A stretch of DNA of 56,271 nucleotides from Candidatus Omnitrophota bacterium. GTDB taxonomy: Bacteria > Omnitrophota > Gorgyraeia > 2-01-FULL-45-10. The stretch is taken from the NCBI GenBank assembly GCA_030695905.1, contig JAUYOL010000023.1, positions 1 to 56,271 of the forward strand. Direction: 5' to 3'. Of this stretch, positions 3,438 through 28,995 are shown in pieces. A program made the position numbers and the translations under genes. The notes below the pieces were generated by a model. The model did no database searches, was not told where the DNA came from, and saw nothing but the letters and a program-made list of their open reading frames with translations. How positions within the stretch are numbered: position 1 is the first letter of the stretch; every line of letters starts with the position of its first letter.

Positions 3438-3444
3438 AATAAAT

Positions 3445-3682: not shown

Positions 3683-4651
3683 ATGCCCAGAGTGCCACGC
3701 ATATACATAGAAAACTCCATTTGCTACGTTACATCCCGGGGCGACCATGATGAGGTCATCTTTAGAGAGGGTGGTGACTATCAAATGTATCTGGAGTTAT
3801 TAAAAAAGGCTAAAGAGCAATACAGGTTCAAGTTATTCGCGTTTTGCCTCCTTCCAAACCACCTGCACCTGCTCATAGAGCCGGATGATGAGGGCGCCAT
3901 ATCCCAGGTTATGCATGGCCTTAATTCGAATTATACAAAATACTTCAATGGCAAATATTCAAAGAGCGGCCATCTGTTTCAGGAAAGATACAAGATGGCG
4001 CTTATTGAAAAATCCCCGAATCTGTTGAATGTTACCGCTTATATACATTTAAATCCTAAGGCCCTGGGCATAGCCGCTGAAATTAAGGATTACCCCTATT
4101 CGAGTTACCCCGCTTACCTGAACGCGAAGACGGCCATTATAAATATAGGAGGAGAGGTAAGAGAGATATCGGGGTATCTTAGCGGAAAAAAATATGAAGA
4201 TTTTATTTCCGGCATAGCGCTTGGCTTTTTGCAGGATCTCGGCAAAGAGCTGTCAAAAAGACCCATAATAGGATCCGATGAATTTGTGGAAAAGGTAAAG
4301 AATAAAATCGAGAGCGATAAATTAAGGGTCGCGGAAGGTTCGCTCTCCGGCTCCATGTTCGGTATTATGTCCGGCAGGAAATTTCTCGCGGCATCGGGTG
4401 TGGCAATTGTCCTGCTCGGGGCATTGACATTTTATCTTTATTCAAGGGCATCGGCATTCAAGGACAACCTTAAGAATAAGGAATCCGAATTCAGCGGCCG
4501 GTTATTAAAAGCTAAAGACGATCTTAAGAAAGATCTTGAAGGAAAATATCGCGCGGATATGGTCTCTTTTGAGGCGATGACAAAACGTCTTGAGATGGAG
4601 AAGCAAAAGGCCGGGGAGCTGGAAGAGCAGCTTAAATCCCAACAGCCTTAA
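3683..4651 (+). CDS. HUH/Y1 (IS200-like, REP-associated tyrosine transposase-like) domain protein with a C-terminal TM helix and coiled coil
   Basis: The first ~150 aa match the COG1943/Y1_Tnp pattern: YHVxxRG-like YVTSRGDH, HUH motif LLPNHLHLLIEP, GHLFQERYK, and catalytic Tyr context TAYIHLNP. A TM helix (AASGVAIVLLGALTFYLY) and a Lys/Glu coiled coil follow. RBS aaaGGAGa lies 6 nt upstream. Confidence 0.75.
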   Translation: MPRVPRIYIENSICYVTSRGDHDEVIFREGGDYQMYLELLKKAKEQYRFKLFAFCLLPNHLHLLIEPDDEGAISQVMHGLNSNYTKYFNGKYSKSGHLFQERYKMALIEKSPNLLNVTAYIHLNPKALGIAAEIKDYPYSSYPAYLNAKTAIINIGGEVREISGYLSGKKYEDFISGIALGFLQDLGKELSKRPIIGSDEFVEKVKNKIESDKLRVAEGSLSGSMFGIMSGRKFLAASGVAIVLLGALTFYLYSRASAFKDNLKNKESEFSGRLLKAKDDLKKDLEGKYRADMVSFEAMTKRLEMEKQKAGELEEQLKSQQP

Positions 4652-4666: not shown

Positions 4667-7600
4667 ATGATTACCATGAAGACAAATTTAATTGCAAAGA
4701 GGGCGTTTTCAGGTTTCGTGGTGACATGTTTTATGCTCTTCTCCTCCTTGTATATATGGGCCGCCTATTCCCAATGGACCGACTCGAACTGGGCCCCTAC
4801 AAGCACTTATGTATACAAAACCGCCGCTATAAATACGTCCGGTCCGGGACTTAAGATTGATCCCGAAGTCGTGCCTGTTACAGATAGTGCCGCGAGCGAT
4901 TTTTTAAAAGGTACGAAGGGTCCTAATGTAATGATAGCTGGAAGTCCCGATGCCAGCCTTGAACTTGCGCCCACAGTGGATCCTTTTCCCGCCACTCTCG
5001 GGCAATGGGGCGAGTTGCCGTCTATACCTGCCCCGGGCGTCTACACGCGTTATATGAGGATGGGCGATTATATATATTGCATATTTGCCTCTGGAGACGG
5101 CAGGCAATTCGGCAGGATAAAGATAAGTGATATGTCGGATCCCGCAAAATTTCCGAAATGGGAGTTTTTGGAGCCCCTGCCTGTGGGGGTATCGGCAGGC
5201 ACCGCCGTTACTAATGACGGTGAGTATATATATGTATTGCGCGGCAGCGGTTCAAAAGAGGTTTATTTCTACCTTCCTCCGGAAATTACCGACCCGGATC
5301 CAGGTGATACCAAATTTCCATTCCTCTCTCCCGGTCCGGGCGAGTGGAAGAAATTTGGTACCGATACAATTCGTCTTACACAGGCTGCCAATGTTGGAGC
5401 GGATATTGCGCATACAGGTAGTCCTCTGTCTACAAAAAACGGTTATCTATATGTATTGAGCGGGGGAGATTCAAGTATATACTCCCGGTATGACCCCAAC
5501 GGCATTCTTAGTAATCTATGGGGAGGCCGCGCCGGGCTGACCGGTATTTTGGTTAATAGCGGAGCAAGTTTGTCCGTCAAGCCAGGCGATAATTATATCT
5601 ATGCTTCGATACCGAATACGAATAACATTAGGAAATATACAATTACCGATAATGTCTGGGCAACGAATATGCCTCCATTGCCTGTGGATACCGCAGGCCA
5701 TTCGCCGAGTTTTACGAGAGGCGCCAGGATATATTATCCCGGCTCCGGCGAATATTTATATGCATGCGGCATTTCAGAGACTTATGTGGGCCCTTACTAC
5801 ACGACAAAAACAAACCGCGGATTTTATAGATTTGGCCCTATTACCGGGACGCCGGCCTGGACACGTCTGGATGACTTACCCGCCCAGCTTTCAGAATATG
5901 GTTTCGTGATATACGATCCTGATATTGGCACCGCGAGTGAAGGCACGCGGCTGCATCTCGTTTCAGGGAAAAATTATACACGTCCGTGGGAATACAGCGT
6001 TACAAATAGTAAATGGAATACCCTTTCACAGGCGCCTCTTAGGAAAAATGGCATGGCATTGATCTCTCCAGGCCCCGGCAGCGACTATCTCTATTATGTG
6101 CCGGCAGATACAACTAATAATTTTTTCCGCTACACGATCTCCCGTAATAGATGGGAAGAGTTGAAGTCTTTGCCGGATAATATCGGCTCTGCCGGAAACC
6201 GTATCACGTATCTCAACGGATATGTATATTGCTTGCAGGGAAATAACAATAGTGGTTTCTGGCGTTACGATGTCAGTCAAGCTCCTGGAGCTGATAGCTG
6301 GGACATATCCCTTCCTCCCTTTCCTCTTACAGCGGGCGGCGGATCCGGAATAGTCGGTGTCAGATCGGGGGGCAATGATTATATATACGCCTTGCGCGCA
6401 AGCGGTACCAATACTTTTTATAGGTATGGTGTTACCAGCCAGGCATGGGAACCAATGGCAAATGCGCTGAATGTGTTTAGTGGGAACGGTATGGTATATC
6501 CGGGTTATCAGGAATCAGATGGCTATACCTATATATATGCCTCGTCAGATGGTGGTAGCGGCAACTTCTATAGATATGGGCCTATAGAGGAGGACGTGGA
6601 TGGAAATGGGGATGGCGTTATAGGCCAATGGCAGGCGAGAGCGCCGACTCTGTTTGGGAATGGAGCCGGATTTATGGGTATAGGAGCCCACTTATATTAT
6701 GTAGGCGAAGGAAAGATACGCGCTTCTCTTAAAAGTGGTACCTCTCAAAATCTTGTCTATTACATCGATACAAATATCTGGGAACTTAAAGAGCCCCTTC
6801 CATTTTATGATGGTATCAGCGCGCTTACTTCAGATGAGACAAGCATCTATGCTCTTTATGGTTATAGCGATGGCGGGTTCGCCAGATTTGATCTGGCCGG
6901 CCAATCATGGAATGAACCTGTGGTAAGCAGACATGGCTCTATCGCAGGTAATGCCGTAAGTGATAAGGATAAGAATATATATTTCGCATATGGGTACACC
7001 TGGTATAACACAGGTATGGATGCCTGGCATATATGGGTCTATTCACCGTCTTTAAGGCGCTGGACAGGTCTGATGAGGTGTCCTTTCTGGATAGCCAAAG
7101 GCACAAAGGCTGCCTATCTACAGGGTAAGAACGCTCTATTTATTACAAAAGGATCCGGATCAACCAAGCTTTATAAATATGATGTATCCTCGGGTCAATG
7201 GAGCGACTGCAACCCCGGAGACAGATTTTATGCCAATACACAGGTATGCGCAGGATATACAGAGAACGGCACTATGGAGGCAGTATATGCCGTAGGAGGA
7301 CCGAGTGGCAATACCCTATATATGTATTCTCCGGATGCGGATAGCTGGACATCGCTTATTACAGGGTTGCAGGTTTCTACCAAGCAATCTAATGTTATGG
7401 CGTATGTAAACGGTAAGATTTATGTGATAGCATTGGGGACCGGGGATCTTTACGCTTTCGATGGAACCAGCTGGGAACCGAAGGGGAAAATAGGGGGCGC
7501 AAATCCGGTATCTACGGATGAAGGCTGCGCTTTATTCAATAAGTCCGGTTCTAATTACCTGTATTGCATACCGTCATCTCCATCCGATTTATTTTTAAGA

Positions 7601-10600
7601 TATGATACAACTGCGCAGACGTGGAGCCAGCTTAAGTCTCTCCCAGCTATACCATCGCCCCTACAGCAGTTTACCAGTATAGCGGCTACCAGCATAGTGG
7701 ATACAGGGGAAGATTGGTTATACGCGTATAACGCGACATGGGGTGAGAATTTTATACGTTATCACACCGTAAAAGATACATGGGACACATCGAAGTTTTT
7801 ACCGTCAGCCCCACGGTCCGGCAGCGCGATGTGCGGTTACAACGGTTATATTTATTATATTAGCGGAGATGCATCGGGTACTTTTTATCGTTATGATATA
7901 GCCGGTGATGCGTGGGATTCGTTATCTTCCTCCCCACAAATATTTTCAAATAGTGGAGTCAGCATGGCGGTATCAACTTATAGCGGCGAGCGCGCCATAT
8001 ATGTGACAGGCGGCGAAAATCAGACGGGATTTTATAGATATGACATCCCTGCCAATACATGGACGACGCTTAGCTCTCCAGGGACATTTGGCGCCGGCAA
8101 TGCCTTGACTGCGGTAGGGGGATATATTTATGCGCTCAAGGGTGGCGGCACGGTTTTGTGGAAATATAATATAGCAACTGGGACATGGGATGCAACAGCA
8201 TATACTGTGCCTTCAGTAGGATCGGGCGGCAGTATAGTTTATCCCGGTTCCGGCGATTGGGCATATATTTTATTGGGCAACAATACCCCTACCTTATACA
8301 AGTATCATTGTACAGCTGGAAATTCGGTTAAGATCAGGGACTGTCCTGTGAATGTCAGAGAAGCACAGTCTAAGATGGTCTACCCGGGATTTGGAAATTA
8401 TATGTATTATTTACAGGGAATTTCTTTTTCTACTACCGATGATTCATCCGTATTTTTAAGGTATTCCATGACTGCGGATTCATGGGAAGAGCTTATCCCT
8501 ACGTCTTTTACCAGTAAAACTCCTGCGGCATTGGCTTGCGCCGACGGGACAAATTTCTATATATTTCAGTCCCCATATAGCAGGTTGTCCAGCTACAAAG
8601 CCTTTTCAATAGGCGAATATGTATCCGATATGAAGGAGGTTGGTAACCATGATGGCTGGGGTAATGTAAGCTGGGACGCCAACGGTTTACAGATGATGGA
8701 TATAAGGGCCCGGTCGGGAAATGACGCCAATCTTAACGACGCCGTCGAGTGGCGTCTGGCGCCGTCCATCCAGAATCCCGTTGATTTGGATGCCTTAAGT
8801 TCCATGCGCGTTGCGGACAGGTATTTTCAATATAGGGTCGTTTTAGCTACCGACAAACTAAGCGAGACCCCGCAATTACAATCGATAAATTTCGATTATG
8901 AAAGATATGGCTACACCACGCAGGAGATTATCTCGCGCGTATTCGATTCCGGGCGTGCGAATAATCGTATTATGTCCATAAAGTGGAGTGAAACTCTTCC
9001 TGTAGGCACTGACATACGTTTCCAGATGAGGACGGCTTCTACCGCAGCCGGTTTAACGGATATTAATACACCTCCCTGGCTGGGGCCCGGCGGAACGCAA
9101 GTTTTTAATTATCCGTTTGACAGCGCGGTATCCTATGAAAAAGACGACCATATTAAGCTCGATGAAACAGCAGGTGTGGCCAGGCTCTATAAAGATCTCG
9201 AGGACCATCCTTATTCTCACGCGCTTACCCTTTATAATAAGACAGCAACCGATCTAACTAACCAGATAGTGTCTGTCCACATACCTTCTTCATATGAGCA
9301 TTTTTGGCAGCATATCCGCCCTGACGGCGCAGATGTAAGGTTTCACGATGGGGCCAGCAAGATAAGCTATTTAACAAGTTCATTTGATTTCGCGAACAAG
9401 GCCGCCTGGTTTAACATAAGGGCCACTGTGCCAGCCGGCGGTTCAAAGACGATATATATGGTTTATGGTAACGGCCAGCCTGTCTCGGAATCAGACGTTT
9501 CTTTAAGAGACTATAGTTCGTTTACTACTCACCCGACCCTTAGGGCGTGGTGGGATTTTGAAGATGACACCCACAATACGTATGCGGACGATACCGGTTC
9601 CGTGGACGGTGTCAACAATAAACTAAACTTTCAACCGGTTCCGCCGACAGTGTCCCCGGAACGGATATCAACAGGCATTTTCGGATCTAAAGCTGTGAGC
9701 CTGGACGGGGTGCGTGATTATATGGTGACAGATCTTAGTCCTAATTTTACGTATACAGGCGGGAGTAAAACATTATCTTTCTGGATAAGGCCTAAACCTG
9801 ATCCTGATGGCGGTAGGATCATATCGGTTGTAAATCCTTATAATATAATAATCATGTTCGAAAACCCGAATACAGGAAAGCTGAATATCCGTGTGGGTAA
9901 TGGGGATATTGACAATGTCTTTAGCAGAAGCACTTCGAAGGCCCTTCCGTTTGATAATGCCTGGCATCATGTGGCCCTTGTCTTAAGCCCTGACAAGACT
10001 GTAAAAGTCTATATGGACGGACAAGTAACGGATACATGGAGCCAAGCCGTAACTTCATGGAGCCAATTCCTTCCCCCCATTAATCCTAATTCTACCACTA
10101 AACTTACGGTGGGTAATGTGTATCCTCTTGATTACGGTGCTGGTTTCCCGCAGTATTATTACACCGGAGACATAGATTTTATTTCGGTGTTTGAAACAAA
10201 TTTTCAGGAAAAAGAGATAAAAGACTTGTATGTGGGAGCTGATACCAAGAACCGGTTCGGCTTGGTCGTAAAAGAAGAGTCCGTCAACCAACCGGTCCCA
10301 ACCGGTTATCCCGGGGCGGGAAATATCTTTTATTACAGGGTGCCTATAATACTGGACAATTCCGGCAAGCCAGCCAAGCCGGGTCTTAGCCTGATAGATA
10401 TAAATCTTGACGGTTGGTCTGAATACTGGACGCATACAAAAGGCACGAGAAAAGATATGATGGTTACAAATTCTGATGGTGTTACAGTTTTGGGCGCTAA
10501 TTGCGATCCCGAGAACTACAATTTCGAAGCAAAGACAGCGAAAGTTACAATAGAAATCCCGGCACTTGCTGCCGATGAAATAAAAACCATTTATTTCTAT

Positions 10601-13600
10601 TACGGTAATAGCGCTACCCTCACGACAACTATCAAAAACTATAGCATAGGCAGCCCCCGTAATTTTACGGGTAAGGTAATCCATCCATATACTGATGTCG
10701 CGGCAAATAATTTTGGGGCAGGTAATTACTACACGGACAACCCAGTGGTCCAGCCTATATACGGTGTCTTCTATGACAGTGATGACGACATTAACCTATT
10801 CAGCGAGGTCGCTAACAAGCCGGCCACTACAGACATAAGATACCAGATTTCACGGGATGGGTATAACTGGTATTGGTGGGATGGTTCGGCCTGGAGCAAA
10901 ACCGATATGGGCTATAGCCAGACAAATAACGCCGCCGAAATAAATTTACATCTGGCGCAGTTCCAGACAATGCAGGGCTTCTCTTCGGGCGAACTCTCCT
11001 ATCGCGCCTGGCTACATTCTGATGACGGGTCCTTCACGCCTTCTCTGGACAAGGTAGCGGTGGGTCTGGTAACAGGCGAAACATACTATACCGACGCGTC
11101 CGGCATGGAAAAGATAAACGATCTCCATTCAAAGTATGTAGGCGATGACCGGTATATGCAGTATAAGGCTATACTCTATTCGCAGGGCAAAACAACGCCC
11201 GTATTAAACAGTGTTACCATAGATTATATCGAACCGGTCATAGCGGTCACTTCTCCCGCTCTGAACGAAGAGTGGCCTATCGGCAGTTCGCAGACGATAA
11301 GATGGACAGCGCCGGGCCTGGAGGATACGACAGGCGGGGTAAAGATAGAGTATTGGTCTAATAAAATCAATAATTGGGAAACGATAGCCGCCGCTGCCGA
11401 GAATGACGGTGAATATTCATGGCCTGTCAGCGACGATCCTAACCTATCATCTTATGTCAGGGTAACATCCAACGATGTTGGGGCCATTAGCGGGACATCG
11501 GGGAAATTTATTATAAAAGGCTTGATTATGACATCTCCTGTTGGAGGCGAGATCTGGGAGGCGGGCACCACTACCCATAATATAACATGGGACTCTTTTG
11601 GCACCGGCGGGTTACCGGAAAATCCACTGCTCAGGATCTTATATTCTATTGATAGCGGAGCGACATATCCGCCGTCTAACCTTATCGCCAGCAACCAGGA
11701 AGATGATGGTGTTCTTGAGTGGGCCATTCCCCCGGCGCTGCAGTCCGATAATGTCCGGGTGCGCATTGTGCTCCAGCAGAACGAGCAGGTAATAACTGAA
11801 TCAAAAACGGACTTTGGGGTCGTGCCGCATCCTCAAATCACGATCGAAAGCCCTGCCGGCGGAGAAAAATGGATAGCGGGGTTAAGCTATGAAATAAATT
11901 GGAAGACGAATACCCAGCAATTCGCGCCAATATTCATATTGGAATATTCGGTTGACGGAGGCGTTACATGGCCTTACACGGTCGATCCGGTGGCAGGCGC
12001 GCAGTATCTCATCGCTGAAGTTAATTCAGGAGCCATGGCTACCCCGGCCAATCCCAATAATGATTTGATAGGAACCTATAACTGGTCGGTCCCTAATGAG
12101 GTATCTTCTAATGTAAAAGTGAGGGTCAGTGAGAAGACCGTCCCGGCCAATAGAGATACTAATATAAAAGTAATATCACCGCCATCCGAAAGTTTCGAGA
12201 TAGCGGAACCATCCATAACTGTTACGGCACCCAACGGAGGCGAGGTCTGGGTTGTTGGCGACTCAAAGATGATAGAATGGCAGAATCAGGGGATTGTCGG
12301 CACTTCGTTCAGCATAAAATGGTCGCGTGATGATTTTAATTCGGTTGAGAATTCGGGTGACGTGACACCTGATGTCCCAAGTGCCTCCGGAAGTTTCCTC
12401 TGGCCGATACCTTCCGAAGTTATTCCTGCGGGAGAGACAGAGGCAATGGTAAAGATAAGGATAGTCGATAATAGCAAAGATACCCGTTATGACGATTCCC
12501 AAGAGGCGTTCAAAATTCTGGCTAATCCTAAAATTAAAATACTTTGGCCAGATGGCGGCGAGGCGCTCACGGCGGGTGTTAGATATAATATTACCTGGGA
12601 AACAACCGGAAAACTGGCGGACGACGCAAAGTATGACCTATATTACTCTACAACAGAGGTTGTTAATTGGCAGCCTCTGCAAGGTGCTACCCAGGTTGGC
12701 GTAAATAAAACTACGCATATAGGGACATTCCAGGACTTTTTTCCGCTTACCGTAACAAATCATGGCAGGATAAGAGTGGAAAGCCATAATAAGGATGCGT
12801 CAGGCAATCCGTTATATGTAGCCGAATCCGAGAATGCTTTCACCGTTAGTGAGCCTGTGATTGAATTGACTTCGCCTGCTGGCGGAGAGAGCTGGTTCGC
12901 GACAGGTGCATATGATATAACATGGAATACCATAGGTGACATTAAGAATGACAGCGTAGTCATTGAATATGCGATAGATAACGGCGCCTGGCAGACTGTA
13001 TCGCCCGCTCCGGCGCCGGCCGAGATAGCGGCAAAATCTTATCAATGGCGTGTCCCCAATAATATCGGCTCTACCTTTAAGATACGCATAACCGATAACT
13101 ATTGGGTGGGACAAGGGTACAATGTCACCGATACATCTACCGGTAATGTAATATCCCCAACAATAATGATAACACAGCCTACCCCGGACTATTATTGGGT
13201 AATCGGAGTACAGGGTACGGTCTCCTGGACCACGACGGGCGGTGAGACAGGCGCTATAAAGAAATTAAGGGTCCGGTGCATAGCCGATGCCTCGCATACA
13301 TATATTATCGGAGAAGTTACAGATCCGGCTGTCATAGCATCCAATGCCGGCAGCCTTAACTGGACGGTCCCGGCGGATGCCCCTGATTCAAAAGGCGCGA
13401 ATAAAGCCATTATAGAGATATCCGATACGGATCCTGATGGAGTCGGTGTTATCAAGACGGGGGAATTTAATATTAAAGCCCCTTCTTTCCTGATAAATGA
13501 GCCTTCTTTGAGGCCTTCCTGGAAAGTCGGGACGCCGCACACTATAAGCTGGACTGACCTCGGCAGTATTCAGTATCCCGTGAAGGTATTTTGTCGTACC

Positions 13601-16600
13601 AGTGGAGGCGCTACGGTCTATCTGGGGCAGGTTGATAATCCGGGGGCAGCATATTCGTGGAATGTCTTTGATAATCCCGGTGGCACAAGCATCCCAATCG
13701 GAACATCGTATATAATCCTCGAAGATTCACATACGCCTCCTATTGTCACAAAATGGGATGACCCTATCCTAAGAGAAGGCCTGTTTTACGTTGAGGCGCC
13801 GAGGATAAATGTTTCCACGCCATCCGGCGTAAAATGGACGGAAACCGATACGCAAACCATATCCTGGGCGGCCGAAGGCAAGATGATGGGCAATATAAAA
13901 GTTGAATGGTCGAAGCCTGTCGGCGGAGTGGAGCAGATCCAGAGCCCTCCGATTGCCAGTGGACTTGCGGCGGATATCACAGAGGCGCAGTGGGTTAACA
14001 TTCCGCCCGAGGCGGTAGGCAGTCAGGTGCGATTAATAGTAACGGATGTGGATTCGCCGTGGGGAGTAAAAGGTTCATCCGCTCTTTTTACGGTATTCGC
14101 GATCCCTGAATTTACGTTTTTGAAGATTTGTGATCCCGCGACAGGGGAAGAAGTCGATAAGATGCGCATAGGTAACACGTATAAGATAAAATGGGACGAT
14201 AACAACGGCGCTTTCAGCAATAGCCTGGAACTCGATTACTTTACCCAGGCGGAAGGATGGCGCGACATTGCAGGCGCTTCTCCTATTCCAAACCAGAAGG
14301 AATTTTTATGGAAAGTCCCTGACATCGGCATTACGCCATGCGCGAACGCACAGGTGAAAATATCCGATACTACGCCATGGCAGTCGGGAAATCCCAACGT
14401 GACTACGCTTGAATCAACCGTGCTTCCGCTCGTCCGGCCCGTTTTTGAAAACGTAATAGTCGCTAAAAACGCCTCCTCTAATGTCCATGAACAGTATATC
14501 GCATATGGTGAGAGCCCTGTCATTAAGTGGCAATCCGATGGACATATAAACGAGAATGCCGTCCGTATCCGGCTTATTACCGAAACACAGGATATAACAA
14601 TCGGTTCGAACCTTGCCGATGCCGGTAGTCACGCCGGGTGGATAATGCCCGATATCCCGGTAAGCAGCCAGGCGAAGATTTTAGTAGAGGATGTTGTGGC
14701 GGATTATGGCGGCATAAAGGTCATCGATGAATCAGCAGTATTCAATATTATTACAAAGCCTGAACTTAGACTTCTTTCTCCTGATGGGGCCGAGGACTAC
14801 GTTATAGATAAGGACACTATCCCGATTACATGGGAATCAAAAGGATTGACCGTTGATAATGTGAAGATAGAGATGTCCGCGAATGATTTTGAAACCGCGT
14901 ATACTATCGTTGATTCGACTCCTAACGACGGGAGTTTCAACTGGTATATCATGAATGATCCCAATGTGCCCGCAGGCACCCATGTTAAGATAAGGGTCAG
15001 TATGGTCGGCAGGGAAGCGGGAGTTCGTGATGAGTCAAATAATTATTTTACAATCAGAAGCGGTTTTGACATAAGCTCGCCGTCAAAAGACATGGAAGAG
15101 GTATGGATGACGAACGAAGAAAAAGAGATACGCTGGCAGACAAGAGGGAGTATCCCCAAAGTCAGCGTCTTCTATAGTATAGACGGCGGCGCTAACTTTA
15201 TCCGTATAACCGGTCCTGAAGGCATAGACAATACAGGTGTCTTTCTCTGGAAAGTACCGAATGAGCGCACGGACCAGGAGCTCCCTGCAGATCCGTCCAA
15301 AAAAGTCATCATAAGGATCGGGGAATGGGTTGCCGCGGATCCGTATATTTCAGATTTGATCAAGAATGACTCGAATACTTTCGAGATATCGTGGTATACA
15401 ATAAAATTCTATATTATCGACAAGGATACGTATGATAACCTGAAGAGTCTGACCATAGAATGCAACGCGGATGCCGCGCAGAACTTCCCTGAATGGAAAG
15501 TCCTGGATTTCTCCGTAAATTCGCCCATATCGCACGAATTCCCTTACGGGACATTCTTGACAACATGGAATACCAAACCCACGGCCCAGGGCGTGCCGGA
15601 CTATTTTACAAGGACAGTTGAGGTAAAAGCGGATGCCGCTACCGCCGCGAAAGGTGTAATTGTGGATATGGAGAACAGGATTTCCGCCACGATAGAATGG
15701 CATGTCCTTCTCTCTACTTCCTACATGGCGGAAACGGATAAGATGGAGATGTCTACATGGCTCGAACGCAGAGGCCGCCTTGTGGAACCAAAATTCATAG
15801 ATACAAATGAAGATGGCGTGGCCGATACCATTGTAAAGGACGATTTTAAGGGGGTAACAATTTCTGTGTATGATTATGATACAGATACCCTGTTAAAACA
15901 ATTTACGGCTATCCTGCCCGACGACAGAGGTGTTTACAAATTTACGTGGGACAATACCGGTTTACAGGCGGGTAAGACATATTTTGTCAAGGCCGCTTTT
16001 ATCTATGGCGAGAATACATATACTTCAGGCTCATCGCTTGAAGTAACACAGGCAAAGAAACAACTGGAAGCGGCCCAACAGCTCGATACAATAGAGTCCC
16101 AGACAACAGTAATACAGGCGCAGACAACGGCCATACAGACCGCGGTAGAGCAGACGCTTCCGCAGAAGATCACCGAAGCGACGGGCGCTATAGAGAAGAA
16201 GGTAGACGCTACGAAGGAAGAGCTGAAGAAAGATACAGCCAGGATAATGACGGCCACGGAACAGACTATTCCCGCGCAGATCACGGAAAAAGTGGAGTCC
16301 GTTTTAAGGTCGGAGATCTTAAATAGGGAAAGCACGGTGCGCCTGGGTCAGAAACTCATGGTTCGATACCGGACTTATGCCGGGTTAGCTCCTGTAATGG
16401 ACGTGTATAATCCATATAATTTGCTTGTGATATCCCAGGCTCCGATGGTTGAAGTCGCGGGTTCGCCGGGTATCTATGAATATGAGATATTAATGGCGTA
16501 CGGTTGGAATGTGGGCGACTATACGATAGTATGTTCCGAGCCAACTAAGGGCACCATGGATGCCTTGCTTATATCCGTGATCAGGACAGACTTGGAAGAA

Positions 16601-17002
16601 GTCGCCAGCCAGGTAGCCACAATCATGGGAACGACCACAAGCCTGTCCAACCTTAAAGACGTGGCGGATACATTAAACAGTCAATTTAGTATCATAGAAT
16701 CGGCGCTCGGCAAAATAAGTACCGACCTGGTGGATAAGGTGAAAGAGGTCGCGTCCAGCGCCAATGACATCGAATCGGTATATAGCCAGCTTGTAAATAT
16801 AGGTAAAGAGCTTAAGACCCTCGGCGCCAACCAGGATGTGAATTTGAGTAAACTGCTCGAGGTCTCCAAAGAGAAGAGCCAGGATATCAAATATCTTAAG
16901 AATAAAACGCAGCAATTGAAAGCCGCCATGGAAATTAATACCAAGATGGTGGATAATATAGCTCATAAGCCCGTTACGCAGACATGGTTCGAATATAAAT
17001 AG
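4667..17002 (+). CDS. Giant (4111 aa) secreted/surface multi-domain protein, putative adhesin
   Basis: Uninterrupted 12,336-nt ORF with an N-terminal signal/anchor (FVVTCFMLFSSLYIWAAYSQ). Domain blocks are listed as separate features. The C-terminus has an Ala/Gln/Thr-rich coiled coil (QAKKQLEAAQQLDTIESQTTVIQAQTTAIQTAVEQ), one more beta-sandwich and a helical tail. No LPXTG, PEP-CTERM or T9SS-type C-terminal signal was recognised. Confidence 0.9.
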   Translation: MITMKTNLIAKRAFSGFVVTCFMLFSSLYIWAAYSQWTDSNWAPTSTYVYKTAAINTSGPGLKIDPEVVPVTDSAASDFLKGTKGPNVMIAGSPDASLELAPTVDPFPATLGQWGELPSIPAPGVYTRYMRMGDYIYCIFASGDGRQFGRIKISDMSDPAKFPKWEFLEPLPVGVSAGTAVTNDGEYIYVLRGSGSKEVYFYLPPEITDPDPGDTKFPFLSPGPGEWKKFGTDTIRLTQAANVGADIAHTGSPLSTKNGYLYVLSGGDSSIYSRYDPNGILSNLWGGRAGLTGILVNSGASLSVKPGDNYIYASIPNTNNIRKYTITDNVWATNMPPLPVDTAGHSPSFTRGARIYYPGSGEYLYACGISETYVGPYYTTKTNRGFYRFGPITGTPAWTRLDDLPAQLSEYGFVIYDPDIGTASEGTRLHLVSGKNYTRPWEYSVTNSKWNTLSQAPLRKNGMALISPGPGSDYLYYVPADTTNNFFRYTISRNRWEELKSLPDNIGSAGNRITYLNGYVYCLQGNNNSGFWRYDVSQAPGADSWDISLPPFPLTAGGGSGIVGVRSGGNDYIYALRASGTNTFYRYGVTSQAWEPMANALNVFSGNGMVYPGYQESDGYTYIYASSDGGSGNFYRYGPIEEDVDGNGDGVIGQWQARAPTLFGNGAGFMGIGAHLYYVGEGKIRASLKSGTSQNLVYYIDTNIWELKEPLPFYDGISALTSDETSIYALYGYSDGGFARFDLAGQSWNEPVVSRHGSIAGNAVSDKDKNIYFAYGYTWYNTGMDAWHIWVYSPSLRRWTGLMRCPFWIAKGTKAAYLQGKNALFITKGSGSTKLYKYDVSSGQWSDCNPGDRFYANTQVCAGYTENGTMEAVYAVGGPSGNTLYMYSPDADSWTSLITGLQVSTKQSNVMAYVNGKIYVIALGTGDLYAFDGTSWEPKGKIGGANPVSTDEGCALFNKSGSNYLYCIPSSPSDLFLRYDTTAQTWSQLKSLPAIPSPLQQFTSIAATSIVDTGEDWLYAYNATWGENFIRYHTVKDTWDTSKFLPSAPRSGSAMCGYNGYIYYISGDASGTFYRYDIAGDAWDSLSSSPQIFSNSGVSMAVSTYSGERAIYVTGGENQTGFYRYDIPANTWTTLSSPGTFGAGNALTAVGGYIYALKGGGTVLWKYNIATGTWDATAYTVPSVGSGGSIVYPGSGDWAYILLGNNTPTLYKYHCTAGNSVKIRDCPVNVREAQSKMVYPGFGNYMYYLQGISFSTTDDSSVFLRYSMTADSWEELIPTSFTSKTPAALACADGTNFYIFQSPYSRLSSYKAFSIGEYVSDMKEVGNHDGWGNVSWDANGLQMMDIRARSGNDANLNDAVEWRLAPSIQNPVDLDALSSMRVADRYFQYRVVLATDKLSETPQLQSINFDYERYGYTTQEIISRVFDSGRANNRIMSIKWSETLPVGTDIRFQMRTASTAAGLTDINTPPWLGPGGTQVFNYPFDSAVSYEKDDHIKLDETAGVARLYKDLEDHPYSHALTLYNKTATDLTNQIVSVHIPSSYEHFWQHIRPDGADVRFHDGASKISYLTSSFDFANKAAWFNIRATVPAGGSKTIYMVYGNGQPVSESDVSLRDYSSFTTHPTLRAWWDFEDDTHNTYADDTGSVDGVNNKLNFQPVPPTVSPERISTGIFGSKAVSLDGVRDYMVTDLSPNFTYTGGSKTLSFWIRPKPDPDGGRIISVVNPYNIIIMFENPNTGKLNIRVGNGDIDNVFSRSTSKALPFDNAWHHVALVLSPDKTVKVYMDGQVTDTWSQAVTSWSQFLPPINPNSTTKLTVGNVYPLDYGAGFPQYYYTGDIDFISVFETNFQEKEIKDLYVGADTKNRFGLVVKEESVNQPVPTGYPGAGNIFYYRVPIILDNSGKPAKPGLSLIDINLDGWSEYWTHTKGTRKDMMVTNSDGVTVLGANCDPENYNFEAKTAKVTIEIPALAADEIKTIYFYYGNSATLTTTIKNYSIGSPRNFTGKVIHPYTDVAANNFGAGNYYTDNPVVQPIYGVFYDSDDDINLFSEVANKPATTDIRYQISRDGYNWYWWDGSAWSKTDMGYSQTNNAAEINLHLAQFQTMQGFSSGELSYRAWLHSDDGSFTPSLDKVAVGLVTGETYYTDASGMEKINDLHSKYVGDDRYMQYKAILYSQGKTTPVLNSVTIDYIEPVIAVTSPALNEEWPIGSSQTIRWTAPGLEDTTGGVKIEYWSNKINNWETIAAAAENDGEYSWPVSDDPNLSSYVRVTSNDVGAISGTSGKFIIKGLIMTSPVGGEIWEAGTTTHNITWDSFGTGGLPENPLLRILYSIDSGATYPPSNLIASNQEDDGVLEWAIPPALQSDNVRVRIVLQQNEQVITESKTDFGVVPHPQITIESPAGGEKWIAGLSYEINWKTNTQQFAPIFILEYSVDGGVTWPYTVDPVAGAQYLIAEVNSGAMATPANPNNDLIGTYNWSVPNEVSSNVKVRVSEKTVPANRDTNIKVISPPSESFEIAEPSITVTAPNGGEVWVVGDSKMIEWQNQGIVGTSFSIKWSRDDFNSVENSGDVTPDVPSASGSFLWPIPSEVIPAGETEAMVKIRIVDNSKDTRYDDSQEAFKILANPKIKILWPDGGEALTAGVRYNITWETTGKLADDAKYDLYYSTTEVVNWQPLQGATQVGVNKTTHIGTFQDFFPLTVTNHGRIRVESHNKDASGNPLYVAESENAFTVSEPVIELTSPAGGESWFATGAYDITWNTIGDIKNDSVVIEYAIDNGAWQTVSPAPAPAEIAAKSYQWRVPNNIGSTFKIRITDNYWVGQGYNVTDTSTGNVISPTIMITQPTPDYYWVIGVQGTVSWTTTGGETGAIKKLRVRCIADASHTYIIGEVTDPAVIASNAGSLNWTVPADAPDSKGANKAIIEISDTDPDGVGVIKTGEFNIKAPSFLINEPSLRPSWKVGTPHTISWTDLGSIQYPVKVFCRTSGGATVYLGQVDNPGAAYSWNVFDNPGGTSIPIGTSYIILEDSHTPPIVTKWDDPILREGLFYVEAPRINVSTPSGVKWTETDTQTISWAAEGKMMGNIKVEWSKPVGGVEQIQSPPIASGLAADITEAQWVNIPPEAVGSQVRLIVTDVDSPWGVKGSSALFTVFAIPEFTFLKICDPATGEEVDKMRIGNTYKIKWDDNNGAFSNSLELDYFTQAEGWRDIAGASPIPNQKEFLWKVPDIGITPCANAQVKISDTTPWQSGNPNVTTLESTVLPLVRPVFENVIVAKNASSNVHEQYIAYGESPVIKWQSDGHINENAVRIRLITETQDITIGSNLADAGSHAGWIMPDIPVSSQAKILVEDVVADYGGIKVIDESAVFNIITKPELRLLSPDGAEDYVIDKDTIPITWESKGLTVDNVKIEMSANDFETAYTIVDSTPNDGSFNWYIMNDPNVPAGTHVKIRVSMVGREAGVRDESNNYFTIRSGFDISSPSKDMEEVWMTNEEKEIRWQTRGSIPKVSVFYSIDGGANFIRITGPEGIDNTGVFLWKVPNERTDQELPADPSKKVIIRIGEWVAADPYISDLIKNDSNTFEISWYTIKFYIIDKDTYDNLKSLTIECNADAAQNFPEWKVLDFSVNSPISHEFPYGTFLTTWNTKPTAQGVPDYFTRTVEVKADAATAAKGVIVDMENRISATIEWHVLLSTSYMAETDKMEMSTWLERRGRLVEPKFIDTNEDGVADTIVKDDFKGVTISVYDYDTDTLLKQFTAILPDDRGVYKFTWDNTGLQAGKTYFVKAAFIYGENTYTSGSSLEVTQAKKQLEAAQQLDTIESQTTVIQAQTTAIQTAVEQTLPQKITEATGAIEKKVDATKEELKKDTARIMTATEQTIPAQITEKVESVLRSEILNRESTVRLGQKLMVRYRTYAGLAPVMDVYNPYNLLVISQAPMVEVAGSPGIYEYEILMAYGWNVGDYTIVCSEPTKGTMDALLISVIRTDLEEVASQVATIMGTTTSLSNLKDVADTLNSQFSIIESALGKISTDLVDKVKEVASSANDIESVYSQLVNIGKELKTLGANQDVNLSKLLEVSKEKSQDIKYLKNKTQQLKAAMEINTKMVDNIAHKPVTQTWFEYK
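4990..8610 (+). other. Kelch-like beta-propeller blade region of the giant protein (about 24 blades)
   Basis: A 45-55-aa repeat recurs: xYIYxLxGxxxxxFYRYDxxxxxWxxL. Examples are GEYIYVLRGSGSKEVYFY, NDYIYALRASGTNTFYRYGVTSQAWEPM, NGYIYYISGDASGTFYRYDIAGDAWDSL and RAIYVTGGENQTGFYRYDIPANTWTTL. Confidence 0.7.
9210..10615 (+). other. DUF2341-like / LamG (concanavalin-like lectin) / DUF2341-like block of the giant protein
   Basis: DUF2341-like segments: HIRPDGADVRFHDG...WFNIRATVPAGGSKTIYMVYGNG and YYRVPIILDN...MMVTNSDG...IEIPALAADEIKTIYFYYGNS. The LamG-like core is LRAWWDFEDD...SKAVSLDGVRDYMV...KTLSFWIRP...WHHVALVLSPDKTVKVYMDGQ. Confidence 0.6.
11231..15385 (+). repeat. 13 tandem Ig-like beta-sandwich modules (protein-level repeat, 96-126 aa each) in the giant protein
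   Basis: Each unit follows I.V.SP.GGE.W..G....I.W...G......I.YS.D.G..W..I......G...W.VP........VRI. Unit starts are near 11231, 11519, 11833, 12212, 12530, 12857, 13160, 13484, 13801, 14108, 14438, 14762 and 15061. The nucleotide sequences are strongly diverged. Confidence 0.7.
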
Positions 17003-17008
17003 GAAAAA

Positions 17009-17063
17009 TATCTAACCAGGTTAGATACTCAGGTAACCTGCCATATCTAACCTGGTTAGATAT
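17009..17063. repeat. Nested palindrome: two perfect 9-10-bp-arm palindromes flanking a smaller one
   Basis: TATCTAACC-A-GGTTAGATA (17009-17027), CAGGT-A-ACCTG (17030-17040) and ATATCTAACC-T-GGTTAGATAT (17043-17063). The third element is the exact reverse complement of the first. The block sits between the giant-gene stop (17002) and the next ATG (17078). Confidence 0.9.
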
Positions 17064-17077
17064 TATAGGAGAGTGAT

Positions 17078-17872
17078 ATGAAGCGGATATTGTGCCTGGC
17101 GATTTTTTTATTGAGTCTATCTATTTTAGTTTCAAATTCCTGTGCGGGTATCGTCCTCAAAGTCATGGCGGCAAATCCTTCAAAAACAGAAAAACAGACG
17201 GTTACCGTAAAGGCGTATCTTCCAAAAGAAGTTAAGCCTGAAGATGTCGTTGACAAGGGGGACCTTGAAATAGCGTATGATAATCAGCAGGGCTCTTATT
17301 ATGTTTACGGCGAGTACCAGCTCGATCCGGGGCAGACGCTTGACCGGGATGTAGAGATGCACGATATCTGGCAGGTGCCGGCCCAGGAGATAGAGTCGAT
17401 AAGAAGCGAAGCCGACAAGACGTCTAAATTATTGGAGAATACGGATTTTCGCGACAGAATGGCTTTTTTAAAACAGAGCATAGAATCGAAACTAAAAGAG
17501 ATCGAGGACAGGCAGAGAGTTCCCGCCGCGAACCCCGAACGCCATATATCGAATTACAGGGACAATGTTAAGCTTATGGAGTCCGTTAAAGCGGACCTCG
17601 TTGTATTAAGAAGCCTGCTCGCGCAGGCCAAGGGCCTTCCCGCAACCGCTGTGTGGAGGCTCATTCTTATCATAATAATATTTCTGGGCATAATAGGCAC
17701 GGGCTCATACCTTATATGGCAAAGACAGATGAAGTTAGTGGATATCTCTACTCCGTCGGAAAAAAAGAAAGAGGATGAGGCGGAACCGAAAGATAAAAAG
17801 GCGGAAGCCGGTGACGATCAGCTGGAAGCGGCCGAGAATATAGAGAAATTGTTGCGCGGAGACAAAAAGTGA
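17078..17872 (+). CDS. Hypothetical bitopic protein (signal peptide, C-terminal TM helix, acidic/Lys tail)
   Basis: Signal peptide MKRILCLAIFLLSLSILVSNSCAG, C-terminal TM helix VWRLILIIIIFLGIIGTGSYLIW, then the KKKEDEAEPKDKKAE tail. RBS aGGAGAg upstream. No family recognised. Confidence 0.55.
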   Translation: MKRILCLAIFLLSLSILVSNSCAGIVLKVMAANPSKTEKQTVTVKAYLPKEVKPEDVVDKGDLEIAYDNQQGSYYVYGEYQLDPGQTLDRDVEMHDIWQVPAQEIESIRSEADKTSKLLENTDFRDRMAFLKQSIESKLKEIEDRQRVPAANPERHISNYRDNVKLMESVKADLVVLRSLLAQAKGLPATAVWRLILIIIIFLGIIGTGSYLIWQRQMKLVDISTPSEKKKEDEAEPKDKKAEAGDDQLEAAENIEKLLRGDKK

Positions 17873-18684
17873 GACAAATCGTCATTGCAAGGCCCCTTTG
17901 GTCGCTCGTAATGACGATTTTTATTTTATGTGGTTATGCCTGTGCGGAAAGTTTTGAGGGATCATTATGGGAAGTAAAAAAGAGCAACCATTTCGCGGTA
18001 TATTATAAAGATTCGGAATCCAACGATTATGTAAACGAGGTATTAAAATACGCGGAAAAATATTATGAGGATATGACGGAGCAGCTCGGATTCCGCCGAT
18101 TTGAATTCTGGACATGGGAAAAACAATGCAAAATATATATCTATCCGACAGCTAAGGAGTATCATGATTCTACCGGCCAGCCTGAATGGTCGGGAGCGGC
18201 CGCATATATAAAGGAAAGAGCGATAAAGACTTTTGTCCGCAGGGAGGAGTTTCTCGAGACCATATTGCCGCATGAAATGGCCCATCTGATATTCAGGGAA
18301 TTTATAGGATATAAGACGGATATACCTTTGTGGCTTGATGAAGGAATATCATCCCTTCAGGAAGAGAAGAACAGGAAGTCGCACCTTCTTATAGCGAAAG
18401 TTTTGGTTAAATCGCATGTATTCATACCTCTTCCAAAATTGACAAGGATAGTAAAAGAAGGGCTTGTAATGCCCGGTGTATTTTACGCGGAAGCGGCAAG
18501 CGTGATAGAGTTTCTTTTGGAAAAATACGGCAAGGAAAAATTTGTTGATTATTGCCGCGTGTTAAGAGATAATAAGAATTGGGAAGCGGCTCTCAAGACG
18601 GTGTATGGATTCAAAGACCTCTCCGAGATGAATGATGGATGGCTTAAATTCCTATCGGAGAAGAGGATAGATACCAATCAATAG
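17869..18684 (+). CDS. Zinc metallopeptidase, peptidase_MA-like (HExxH)
   Basis: The ILPHEMAHLIFREF...LWLDEGISSLQE motif (HExxH plus a downstream Glu), with an N-terminal hydrophobic signal/anchor. The GTG start overlaps the upstream stop (GTGA). An internal ATG 14 codons downstream is also possible. Confidence 0.65.
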   Translation: MRQIVIARPLWSLVMTIFILCGYACAESFEGSLWEVKKSNHFAVYYKDSESNDYVNEVLKYAEKYYEDMTEQLGFRRFEFWTWEKQCKIYIYPTAKEYHDSTGQPEWSGAAAYIKERAIKTFVRREEFLETILPHEMAHLIFREFIGYKTDIPLWLDEGISSLQEEKNRKSHLLIAKVLVKSHVFIPLPKLTRIVKEGLVMPGVFYAEAASVIEFLLEKYGKEKFVDYCRVLRDNKNWEAALKTVYGFKDLSEMNDGWLKFLSEKRIDTNQ

Positions 18685-25359: not shown

Positions 25360-25365
25360 TATTAA

Positions 25366-26592
25366 ATGCCGAAATTTTTGTATAAAGCAAAACACGGCCT
25401 TGACGAGACGTTCGAAGGTGAGATAGAAGCGTCAAATCAGGACGAAGCCCTCAAGAGGCTCATGGCCAGGGGACTCTTCCCCGTAAGCATAACGGAATCC
25501 GCCCCTAAAGAAAAAAAGCAGACAAAAAAATTTCAATTAAAACTGGGCGGCAGTAGAATAGGCGCCGGCGAGATATTGGTCTTTACCAGAAAGCTCGCTA
25601 CCCTTACAAGGGCAAAGGTAGAGTTGTTACCAAGCCTTAAGATCCTGTATGAACAGACCGAAAACGAAAAATTTAAATCCATAATACTGGAACTCTATAA
25701 TGGCACAAAGGAAGGCACTCATTTTTCCGAAAGCCTTGCCCGCTATCCCGAAATTTTCCCGTCCCTGTATATAAATATAATCAGGGCCGGCGAGGCAAGC
25801 GGTCATCTTGATGCGGGCCTCGATCAGATAAGCGAATTTATGAGCCGCGAAGAGAGCTTGAAGTCAAAAGTGCTTACGGCCCTCGCGTATCCGGCGCTTC
25901 TGCTTATAGTGGGCCTTACCAGTATATTTGTGCTAATAAATTTTGTTATTCCCAAACTTAAACCTATATTTGAAAATGTCGGCGCGAAAGAACTTCCGGC
26001 GATAACAAAGATAATACTTAATATAAGCGTTATATCCAATAAGATATGGTGGGTGGTGCTTTTAGCGATCGCCGCCACAGTGATATTTATATATTATCAG
26101 AAGGGCGCGCCTTATTTTAAGAACATAACAAGAAAGATAAAGTCGCACCTTCCCGTTATAAAAAATCTAAGCAAGAATCAGGAGCTGGCGCATCTGTCGC
26201 GTTCTCTGGGACTTTTGTTGAAAAGCGGCGTGCCCGCGTTAAGGTCGTTGGAAATAATAACTCCCGGTATAGAGAATGATGCCTTAAAAGAAGAGATAAG
26301 ATCGGTTTGCCGCGATGTCGCTTCGGGACAATCGATAGCGCAAAGCATGGGGGCCTCTACGAACTTGCCGTCGTTTTTTGTAAAGATGATAGCCGTAGGC
26401 GAGGAATCCGGCAGGCTTTCGGAAGTATTAGATGAATTGTCGAGGTCATATACACAGCAGATAGAAGCCGATATAGCCATAATCTCCTCTCTTATAGAGC
26501 CCGTTTTAATATTAGCCCTTGGAATTATTTTAGGCACTATAGTGCTTTCTATACTTTTGCCCACGTTCCAGGTAACCCAGATAGTGCATTAA
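25366..26592 (+). CDS. gspF: GspF/PilC-family inner-membrane platform protein
   Basis: Two T2SSF-type repeats (FTRKLATLTRAKVELLPSL...; LAHLSRSLGLLLKSGVPALRSLEI) and three TM segments. Confidence 0.88.
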   Translation: MPKFLYKAKHGLDETFEGEIEASNQDEALKRLMARGLFPVSITESAPKEKKQTKKFQLKLGGSRIGAGEILVFTRKLATLTRAKVELLPSLKILYEQTENEKFKSIILELYNGTKEGTHFSESLARYPEIFPSLYINIIRAGEASGHLDAGLDQISEFMSREESLKSKVLTALAYPALLLIVGLTSIFVLINFVIPKLKPIFENVGAKELPAITKIILNISVISNKIWWVVLLAIAATVIFIYYQKGAPYFKNITRKIKSHLPVIKNLSKNQELAHLSRSLGLLLKSGVPALRSLEIITPGIENDALKEEIRSVCRDVASGQSIAQSMGASTNLPSFFVKMIAVGEESGRLSEVLDELSRSYTQQIEADIAIISSLIEPVLILALGIILGTIVLSILLPTFQVTQIVH

Positions 26593-26594
26593 TT

Positions 26595-28555: not shown

Positions 28556-28556
28556 A

Positions 28557-28994: not shown

Positions 28995-28995
28995 T

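Follow-up and report, generated by a model that had tools for sequence, protein, structure and literature searches.

Omnitrophota are ultra-small, uncultivated bacteria that are thought to be predators or parasites of other microbes. In 2023, Seymour et al. described Omnitrophota loci that pair type-4a pilus/secretion genes with a non-respiratory, "symbiotic" F-type ATPase no more than 10 kb away, and proposed that these loci encode attachment devices; the alpha subunit of the ATPase grouped with type-2/3 ATPases of the Mycoplasma gliding kind, and large open reading frames (ORFs) with Laminin_G_3 domains were regarded as putative adhesins (PMC10066038). In the same year, West-Roberts et al. 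described giant proteins of the Archaeovorin and Dockerin types, which have numerous transmembrane regions, SecA-DEAD, and many enzyme domains (10.1101/2023.11.21.568195). Here, we describe a 12.3-kb gene in a 56,271-nt stretch of DNA from a Candidatus Omnitrophota bacterium (assembly GCA_030695905.1, contig JAUYOL010000023.1; hereafter "the window"). We refer to its 4111-aa (amino acid) product, P0001, as "the giant", and to the 264-aa membrane protein encoded immediately downstream as "the anchor". Our reading, to which we assign a probability of roughly 0.6, is that the giant is a riboswitch-controlled fibrillar adhesin tethered to the inner membrane, i.e., the variable, outward subunit of a two-part envelope fiber. 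Judged from its sequence, the giant probably serves in sticking to other cells.

In the text of Seymour et al. (PMC10066038) that we searched, we found neither a giant gene that belongs to these loci as a rule nor the conserved tail module, the split or fused anchor, or the riboswitch. Similarly, the Omnitrophota texts that we searched, including that study and West-Roberts et al. (10.1101/2023.11.21.568195), contain no fixed giant, tail/anchor device, or riboswitch at such loci.

The conserved tail and its proposed membrane anchor

The C-terminal part of the giant and the gene that follows it are laid out below. Positions are those of the window, and model confidence is given as the predicted local distance difference test (pLDDT).

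4667..17002, + strand: giant ORF, 4111 aa, ATG start (ORF listing and translation)
15392..16042, + strand: two beta-sandwiches, aa 3576-3668 and 3678-3792 (AlphaFold2 pLDDT 80-90)
16052..16258, + strand: long Ala/Gln/Thr-rich helix of 69 residues, aa 3796-3864 (residues 240-308 of the AlphaFold2 model, modest confidence)
16334..16582, + strand: third beta-sandwich, aa 3890-3972 (AlphaFold2 pLDDT ~80), with a conserved GIYEY...GDYTIVCSE block
16589..16960, + strand: helical tail, aa 3975-4098 (AlphaFold2 pLDDT ~40 alone; 87% identity to related loci L021 and L013)
16967..16999, + strand: terminal motif KPVTQTWFEYK-COOH, the proposed docking strand, near-invariant in orthologues
17003..17077, + strand: spacer between the giant and anchor genes, carrying two palindromes of ~20 nt ahead of an AGGAG ribosome-binding site
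17078..17872, + strand: anchor gene, 264 aa, 75 nt after the stop codon of the giant

The C-terminal ~555 aa are the best-conserved part of the giant's family, with 30-67% identity in 10 orthologues, and the family's conserved module of ~525 aa ends in a near-invariant motif, ...YLKNKTQELKAAMEIN.KM.DN.A.KPVTQTW[FY]E[YF][KR]. A first-pass annotation of the window, made from its letters alone, had placed two further beta-sandwiches, a coiled coil, an extra immunoglobulin (Ig)-like domain, and a helical tail in this part of the protein; all of these are found in an AlphaFold2 model of aa 3557-4111 built on an 11-sequence alignment, in which the last 13 residues of the giant are unstructured. A Foldseek search with the tail module returned only generic Ig/macroglobulin-like arrays, with TM-scores of ~0.15. 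The same annotation recognized no C-terminal sorting signal and left retention open. Known signals are indeed absent: LPXTG, the C-terminal domain of type IX secretion (T9SS), PEP-CTERM, and the retention module of type I secretion (T1SS) gave no match to the giant in Pfam/NCBIfam scans at E <= 1. However, the end that it quoted, ...TQTWFEYK, is a family-wide tail, which in relatives is fused to the anchor.

The anchor is kept downstream of every orthologue examined, with 44-60% identity in the related loci L001-L004. It consists of a signal peptide, a beta-sandwich, helices, a C-terminal transmembrane helix (VWRLILIIIIFLGIIGTGSYLIWQRQ), and a charged tail, and belongs to no Pfam family. It also matches the last ~250 aa of the fused proteins P0009, P0019, P0022, P0023, and P0027 (E 1e-33 to 1e-41), where the anchor region directly follows the tail-homologous region in collinear order. 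The fused junction reads ...DNVANEPVTQTWYEY-GS-VVLKAIVI-NPSK. In the split form, the giant ends with ...DNIAHKPVTQTWFEYK-stop, and the anchor begins with a signal peptide ending in ...SCA, followed by GIVLKVMAA-NPSK. A covariation comparison found the tail strand and the first strand of the anchor to be nearly invariant across the family; once its signal peptide is cleaved, the anchor would begin with exactly the strand that in the fused proteins comes after the tail strand. Because the anchor is fused in frame to the giant's tail in relatives, the giant and the anchor are likely the split form of a C-terminally membrane-anchored fiber. The fusion of the tail to a membrane anchor also probably explains how the giant is retained.

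An AlphaFold2 model of the last 430 aa of one natural fusion, P0027 (pLDDT 70; predicted template modeling score 0.54), gives this relation a candidate geometry. The tail-equivalent residues form a beta-strand that leads, through a three-residue turn, into the first strand of the sandwich (pLDDT 80-93); three helices and the transmembrane helix come after the sandwich. The pLDDT of the tail helices increases from ~40 in the split protein to 65-77 in the fusion. From the hairpin geometry in this model, we infer that the tail strand and the anchor strand would pair. A Foldseek search with the tail-plus-anchor fusion returned no match at E < 0.1 and no solved relative of the anchor. Lipoprotein anchoring of the 264-aa protein was considered and rejected, since the Cys varies among orthologues. 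The two palindromes of the spacer, ATATCTAACCAGGTTAGATA and ATATCTAACCTGGTTAGATAT, lie just 5′ of the anchor's AGGAG, and a terminator scan of the spacer found no terminator between the two genes; the palindromes may form an operator, or an RNA element by which the ratio of giant to anchor is set.

The split and fused forms recur across the phylum. In profile searches of 301 sampled Omnitrophota genomes from 206 genera, the best 94 anchor places include 51 stand-alone ORFs and 40 that are in frame with a giant. It is these in-frame fusions to a transmembrane anchor that most strongly disfavor two other readings, of which one, release, is discussed here. The giant might be the released cargo of a type II secretion system (T2SS)-like machine, free or only loosely bound, with its tail as a secretion or targeting signal and the bitopic anchor protein as a chaperone or a factor for transient docking. 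The giant gene has a secretin gene on one side and GspE/GspF/pseudopilin genes on the other, its product has a Sec signal peptide, as T2SS substrates do, and a secreted Peptidase_MA_2 encoded next door could cut it loose; moreover, giant genes of Omnitrophota have been found beside T2SS-like loci (10.1101/2023.11.21.568195). Against this, the 40 proteins in which giant and anchor share a frame would be integral membrane proteins unless cleaved. Linear C-terminal signals are not known in T2SS substrates, which we also count against release. We consider this explanation unlikely, and prefer the reading of a tethered fiber.

The giant gene and the architecture of its product

The window corresponds to contig C38 in its entirety; the genome measures 1.82 Mb in 43 contigs and is 97.5% complete. 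The giant ORF takes up 12,336 of the window's 56,271 bases (21.9%) and its translation has no internal stops, as the earlier description of an uninterrupted frame covering ~22% of the window had it. The start may equally be the in-frame ATG at 4676, which is used by the database copy P0002 (4108 aa), a difference of three residues that is of no consequence. Because a stop-free length of this kind is impossible by chance in 46% G+C DNA, the ORF is not a chance frame. An independent, Logan-assembled protein of 4213 aa (P0003) aligns to 100% of the giant with 46% identity, and ~10 further proteins, 4044-5121 aa long, match the same set of Pfam families. The 12.3-kb gene with its 4111-residue product is thus confirmed as real, and it is not an obvious assembly chimera. 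That the ORF is a chimera or a functionless pseudogene has a negligible probability in our estimate: apart from the full-length collinearity with P0003 and the proteins of like architecture, the frame lacks stops, its G+C content is uniform at 0.46-0.48, and a nucleotide repeat scan found neither direct repeats >31 nt, such as might mislead an assembler, nor notable tandem repeats within it.

From the N-terminus to the end of the stalk, the following features were identified, with Pfam scans run on the whole protein and on 500-aa tiles at curated cut-offs, and with profile hidden Markov models (HMMs) built from the giant itself ("self-HMM").

4667..4765, + strand: Sec-type signal peptide, aa 1-33 (...LYIWA/AYSQ), from hydropathy, with a predicted cleavage site
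5039..8626, + strand: Kelch-like blade region, aa 125-1320, ~24 blades (Pfam, PDB, self-HMM)
8639..8911, + strand: first RY.QY[RK] module, motif RYFQYRVVLATDKLSETPQLQSINFDY (motif scan)
9323..9499, + strand: DUF2341 domain 1, aa 1553-1611 (PF10102, 45.5 bits whole-protein, cut-off 23.4; genome profile search)
9725..10210, + strand: Laminin_G_3 domain (concanavalin-A-like lectin fold), aa 1687-1848 (PF13385, E 4.4e-16, 59.8 bits, cut-off 27.6)
10511..10624, + strand: DUF2341 domain 2, partial match, aa 1949-1986 (second stretch of PF10102)
10964..11242, + strand: second RY.QY[RK] module, motif RYMQYKAILYSQGKTTPVLNSVTIDY (motif scan)
11243..15376, + strand: stalk of 13 Ig-like (Kre9_KNH-type) modules, aa 2193-3570, period ~105 aa (self-HMM)

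The first-pass annotation expected a signal or anchor at the N-terminus, and a hydropathy scan places the sole hydrophobic segment of the giant there, at aa 13-31, with no further transmembrane segments. Orthologues have A-x-A-type sites at the matching position (...PAYA/ANE, ...NAQA/ADE). The N-terminus reads as a Sec signal peptide that would be cleaved, and not as a prepilin leader; a prepilin-like N-terminus was rejected because the G/F...E motif is absent.

Downstream of the signal peptide, blade-sized repeats (44-56 aa) in a region spanning aa ~250-1180 match Kelch_6 (cut-off 25.3) with 43.4 bits for the whole protein and 53.5 bits for a tile, Kelch_4 with 28.8 bits (cut-off 21.6), and Kelch_1 with 26.2 bits (cut-off 20.1), and a PDB sequence search of the blade region returned KLHL20/KLHL7 (E ~3e-5). 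With a blade HMM built from the giant, 19 blades are solid and one is marginal over aa 125-1284; four blade-sized gaps are blade-like by eye (e.g., GKIYVIALGTGDLYAFDGTSWEPKG), giving the total of ~24 that had been proposed from the letters alone. As a count, ~24 blades would fit 4 x 6, the four propellers suggested by the first-pass annotation.

The RY.QY[RK] motif, quoted in the first-pass annotation for its two putative W/YRV-type beta-sandwich modules, is present exactly two times (aa 1385 and aa 2162); the first RY.QY[RK] region is kept in all orthologues, with 31-47% identity. The modules have no Pfam match, and a PDB sequence search of aa 1301-2200 was empty. The two stretches of PF10102 flank PF13385, i.e., the order is DUF2341-LamG-DUF2341. 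LamG and Kelch folds are thus present, while Pfam and NCBIfam scans of the giant gave no match to known adhesive-domain families and the NCBIfam scan yielded nothing meaningful.

The self-HMM finds exactly 13 tandem Ig-like modules at aa 2197-3556 (E 3e-19 to 3e-27), and Kre9_KNH (PF10342; 46 bits, cut-off 24.6) matches repeatedly over aa ~2190-3450. In the scans of the whole protein and of tiles, Kelch and Kre9_KNH models exceed their cut-offs, bearing out the fold types to which the repeats had been assigned. The 13 modules share 13-34% aa identity in pairwise comparisons (mean 23%), with a mean nucleotide identity of 39%. Because of this low identity, the array is old and diverged; a recent repeat expansion or an assembly artefact is ruled out by the 39% nucleotide identity of the modules. 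Thirteen Ig-like modules are likewise present in 9 of the 11 split-type orthologues (35-46% identical overall), so that the earlier description of the array as old and maintained fits. The shared count suggests that stalk length is under constraint, with the stalk as a length ruler. Overall, the first-pass domain reading largely stands, and it is on retention, which that reading left open, that our account departs from it. The first-pass reading also drew on none of the genomic context, i.e., the riboswitch, secretin, F-type ATPase, and pilus-like genes.

The second reading disfavored by the in-frame fusions is that the giant is a PilY1-like adhesin riding on the tip of a pilus or pseudopilus made by the neighboring genes. 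Large DUF2341 proteins of archaeal type IV pilus loci have been likened to PilY1 (PMC4858521), and the giant combines predicted beta-propellers with a pilus-like gene cluster that includes minor pseudopilins. However, its conserved partner is anchored by a transmembrane helix and is fused to the giant in relatives, which is a poor fit for the tip of a filament that extends; the propellers lie in the N-terminal part, at a distance from the conserved end; and a prepilin-type N-terminus is absent. We regard a tip adhesin as very improbable, and continue with the reading of a membrane-tethered fiber.

Distribution and evolution of the family

The tail-module profile was found in 89 of the 301 genomes (60 of the 206 genera), always in large open frames, which reach up to 12,861 aa. 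The anchor profile was found in 149 genomes and 102 genera. Downstream of the anchor, on the same strand, a gene for the fused b/delta subunit of an F-type ATPase is present in 60 of the best 94 anchor places, at distances of 484-3489 nt (median 717 nt). Among 1.84 billion representative proteins, the anchor family comprises 927 clusters at E <= 0.001, and its members are stand-alone proteins, the ends of fused giants, or two-/three-copy proteins. Named records are almost all from "Candidatus Omnitrophota" metagenome-assembled genomes, and a few are labelled Planctomycetes or otherwise; we take these other labels to be loose. Among the multi-copy forms are proteins of ~440-650 aa with two or three tandem anchor beta-domains (e.g., G031:C2:26930-28039, P0049, P0054). 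Such proteins often adjoin ATPase genes where the stand-alone anchor is absent.

The giant is present as a single copy per genome. The genome search with the giant itself used its first 3000 aa. Compared with the orthologous locus L021 of a close relative (genome G301), identity is lowest at the distal end of the protein and rises toward the C-terminus: 38-40% for the head and most of the stalk, 46% for the last three Ig modules, 50% for the tail-module sandwiches, 67% for the helix and third sandwich, and 87% for the helical tail. Among neighboring products, identity is 81% for the anchor, 74% for Peptidase_MA_2, and 71%, 93%, and 66% for the ATPase epsilon, c, and b/delta subunits. This gradient fits a cell-proximal C-terminus that is constrained by interaction and a distal, fast-evolving N-terminal head.

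The first-pass annotation called the giant a mosaic, an apt term for a protein whose head differs among relatives while its tail is constant. Fused-type relatives lack Kelch blades and have 35-53 Ig-like modules; the Ig array, the tail module, and the anchor therefore form a shared chassis, with exchangeable heads. A genome of the same genus has a fused-type giant (G262:C47:3880-7556; a 2440-aa frame) with a weak match to the tail profile (E 5e-31), and among the full-length loci of the species set, similarity is greatest with one from another family (G113:C24/L018, "Candidatus Undivivens industriae", E 7e-237). The distribution of these sequences points to exchange of the locus within the phylum or to very fast turnover.

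Gene neighborhood and regulation

The genes and regulatory elements around the giant and its anchor, among them an aptamer for cyclic di-GMP (c-di-GMP), are as follows.

2..1426, + strand: secretin gene, cut by the contig start, at the head of the cluster (Pfam Secretin E 6e-44, Secretin_N)
1423-1830, 1841-2449, and 2446-3156, + strand: three TPR proteins (Pfam TPR families)
3445-3473, + strand: promoter-like site (promoter scan)
3500-3578, + strand: c-di-GMP-I riboswitch aptamer (Rfam RF01051, 54.7 bits, gathering score 35)
3594-3625, + strand: terminator hairpin with a T-run (terminator scan)
3683..4651, + strand: Y1/HUH (IS200-like) protein with a transmembrane helix and a coiled coil (Pfam Y1_Tnp E 4e-15; PDB 4er8 TnpA-REP E 9e-5)
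17869..18684, + strand: secreted Peptidase_MA_2 with an HEMAH motif (Pfam E 6.5e-19), overlapping the anchor stop codon
18685..23688, + strand: F-type ATPase epsilon, c, b/delta fusion, alpha, gamma, and beta (Pfam; same order in L001-L006)
23689..30364, + strand: GspE (MshEN), GspF, PilM-PilN fusion, PilO-like protein, pseudopilin, and HHH_3 protein (Pfam)

The operon is syntenic with six related loci (L001-L006), in which the order is (MerR, AAA ATPase, T2SS-C-like), secretin, TPR, small ORF, riboswitch, Y1-like, giant, anchor, (Peptidase_MA_2, GGDEF or Fic), ATPase epsilon-c-b/delta-alpha-gamma-beta, GspE-MshEN, GspF, PilMN, and PilO. The secretin and TPR genes are at the same place in L001-L004, and the riboswitch is at the matching place in L001, L002, and L004. 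The ATPase genes directly precede GspE (23689), so that the F-type ATPase genes, putatively of the non-respiratory kind, and the type IV pilus/T2SS genes are co-located within 10 kb. No subunit-a gene is present among the ATPase genes at 18685-23688, and the c subunit (18926-19138) retains its conserved carboxylate (LFAEAIAV) despite belonging to an operon without one. Beyond the pilus genes, a 968-aa ORF (30932-33838) matches no Pfam family at E <= 0.01.

The Y1-like gene is in every case found ahead of the giant; in the window it ends 15 nt before it, and it is also present in L001-L004 and L006. In L001 (8993-9916), the HUH motif PNHLHLL has become SSQLNLL and the Tyr of AYIHLNP is lost (ACMHS); the loss is partial in L006. 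Because of these losses, catalysis is probably not the conserved role of the Y1-like protein. Conservation is stronger in its C-terminal coiled coil (YRADMVSYQAM.KRLEIEKKKVKELE) than at the active site. The Peptidase_MA_2 gene, found also in L002, L004, and L005, could encode an enzyme that processes the giant or its anchor.

Signs of c-di-GMP signaling cluster around the giant, with the riboswitch upstream and an MshEN domain on GspE (23689-23880). In addition, a GGDEF response regulator follows the anchor in L003 (24149-25030), and L005 has a further MshEN protein as well as a PilZ domain fused to GspE (13802-16426). The genome encodes Omp85/BamA and five secretins (contigs C7, C36, C38, and two on C11), an unusually large number for a 1.8-Mb genome. 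Given Omp85/BamA and the five secretins, the cell is diderm; a surface role for the giant would therefore require passage through the outer membrane.

A surface role need not imply a specific adhesin, since the giant might instead be a structural, S-layer-like coat protein. Among the Foldseek matches of the tail module are Ig-like arrays of archaeal and bacterial S-layers (7ptp, 7ptu, 4uic), the giant protein of Velamenicoccus has been proposed to form a "coat" (PMC10066038), and there is one copy of the gene per genome. The fold matches, however, are generic (the TM-scores of ~0.15 given above), the head evolves much faster than the neighboring genes, and a lectin-type head suits ligand binding better than it suits a coat. 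The c-di-GMP riboswitch, moreover, suggests conditional and not constitutive expression. Because of the divergence of the head and the presence of the riboswitch, a constitutive coat is disfavored, and we think it quite improbable.

A proposed mechanism

We propose the following sequence of events for a tethered adhesin. The giant would be made behind the c-di-GMP-I riboswitch, together with the Y1-like membrane protein and the anchor, and would be exported through Sec by means of its cleavable N-terminal signal peptide. Its helical tail and last beta-strand (VTQTWFEY) would then dock in trans on the 264-aa bitopic protein, holding the giant at the cytoplasmic membrane; the mature N-terminal strand of the anchor (GIVLKVMAA) would serve as the hairpin partner that the tail strand has in fused relatives. 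The three beta-sandwiches, the long helix, and the 13-module Ig stalk would project the head away from the cell, and the fiber would cross the outer membrane, most plausibly via the secretin of the cluster. The head, composed of DUF2341-LamG-DUF2341 and ~24 Kelch blades, would probably bind carbohydrate or protein on other cells. From generic domain sizes, we estimate that the extended giant would measure roughly 100 nm, near the radius of these very small cells.

Several points weigh against this proposal. A topological problem arises, since a folded head of propellers would have to pass the outer membrane with its tail left behind at the cytoplasmic membrane. Kelch and LamG folds are no proof of adhesion. 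The docking step is drawn from gene fusion, conservation, and a single-chain model of another organism's fusion, and the signal peptide was called by eye and from hydropathy only.

A bolder extension would make the giant and the anchor the output element, a "leg" or grappling fiber, of a single machine. The conserved transmembrane helix of the anchor (W..F.G......Y..WQ.Q) would be coupled within the membrane to the c-ring or stator of the F-type ATPase, whose operon, directly downstream, has no subunit-a gene. ATP hydrolysis would act in concert with the secretin and with GspE and the pseudopilus as a piston to move or extend a ~100-nm fiber or to put it under tension; the fiber would run through the outer membrane and be retained by strand complementation. 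Such a machine would be the diderm counterpart of Mycoplasma mobile gliding. This extension is built on analogy, and we hold it to be speculative and unlikely.

The tethered reading brings together three features that had been reported apart or not at all: the large surface protein, the non-respiratory F-type ATPase, and the pilus/secretion system. The physical link would be the conserved tail, which in some species forms one protein with a membrane anchor and in others is encoded apart from it, and which offers a testable answer to how such giants are retained in a diderm envelope. Two previously unannotated protein modules are defined, present in a third to a half of the sampled genomes of the phylum. 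The fast-evolving head is the likely determinant of the partners to which a cell can attach, and the pair of tail and anchor is open to tests in E. coli, with no need to culture the organism.

Comparison with known systems

The loci of Seymour et al. (PMC10066038) are from the same phylum and share the arrangement of pilus/secretion genes by an F-type ATPase; they differ in that their "giant ORFs" exceed 20 kb, whereas the gene described here is 12.3 kb. According to that study, Velamenicoccus archaeovorus (LiM culture) has a locus of this type. The Archaeovorin- and Dockerin-type giants (10.1101/2023.11.21.568195) are likewise very large proteins of this phylum, encoded beside T2SS-like genes, with c-di-GMP-related genes close by (pilZ there; the riboswitch and MshEN here). 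However, the giant has one N-terminal hydrophobic segment, no SecA, and no enzyme domain. Assignment to the Archaeovorin/Dockerin type was rejected on these grounds, Pfam scans of the whole protein and of tiles having found no SecA-DEAD, HEAT, dockerin, or enzyme domain. A giant RTX adhesin of the T1SS type (LapA, SiiE, MpIBP) was rejected as well: a signal peptide is present, there is no RTX/HemolysinCabind match, and the neighbors are of T2SS/type IV pilus type.

In the gliding of Mycoplasma mobile (PMC8406192, PMC11864180), an ATP-synthase-derived motor (an F1-like ATPase) is encoded with or acts with giant surface proteins of >3000 aa (Gli349/Gli521) that bind host glycans. The likeness is one of analogy only. 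The Omnitrophota operon differs in keeping c, epsilon, and b/delta and in having a secretin/pilus system; coupling of the motor to the fiber is hypothetical, and we claim no sequence relation to the Gli proteins. The large DUF2341 proteins that Makarova et al. (2016; PMC4858521) described in archaeal type IV filament loci were likened to PilY1 and proposed as adhesins; those proteins are placed at the pilus tip, whereas the conserved end of the giant is tied to a membrane anchor.

The closest parallel in overall logic is with the fibrillar adhesins of Monzon, Lafita, and Bateman (PMC8286594, PMC9210967), which share with the giant a head-stalk-anchor layout, with a putative binding region at the distal end, a tandem Ig-like stalk, and fast evolution. 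The difference lies in the anchor, which is not an LPXTG, T9SS, or T1SS-retention element but a separate or fused bitopic protein, contacted, as we would have it, through a C-terminal strand, and in the organism, which is diderm.

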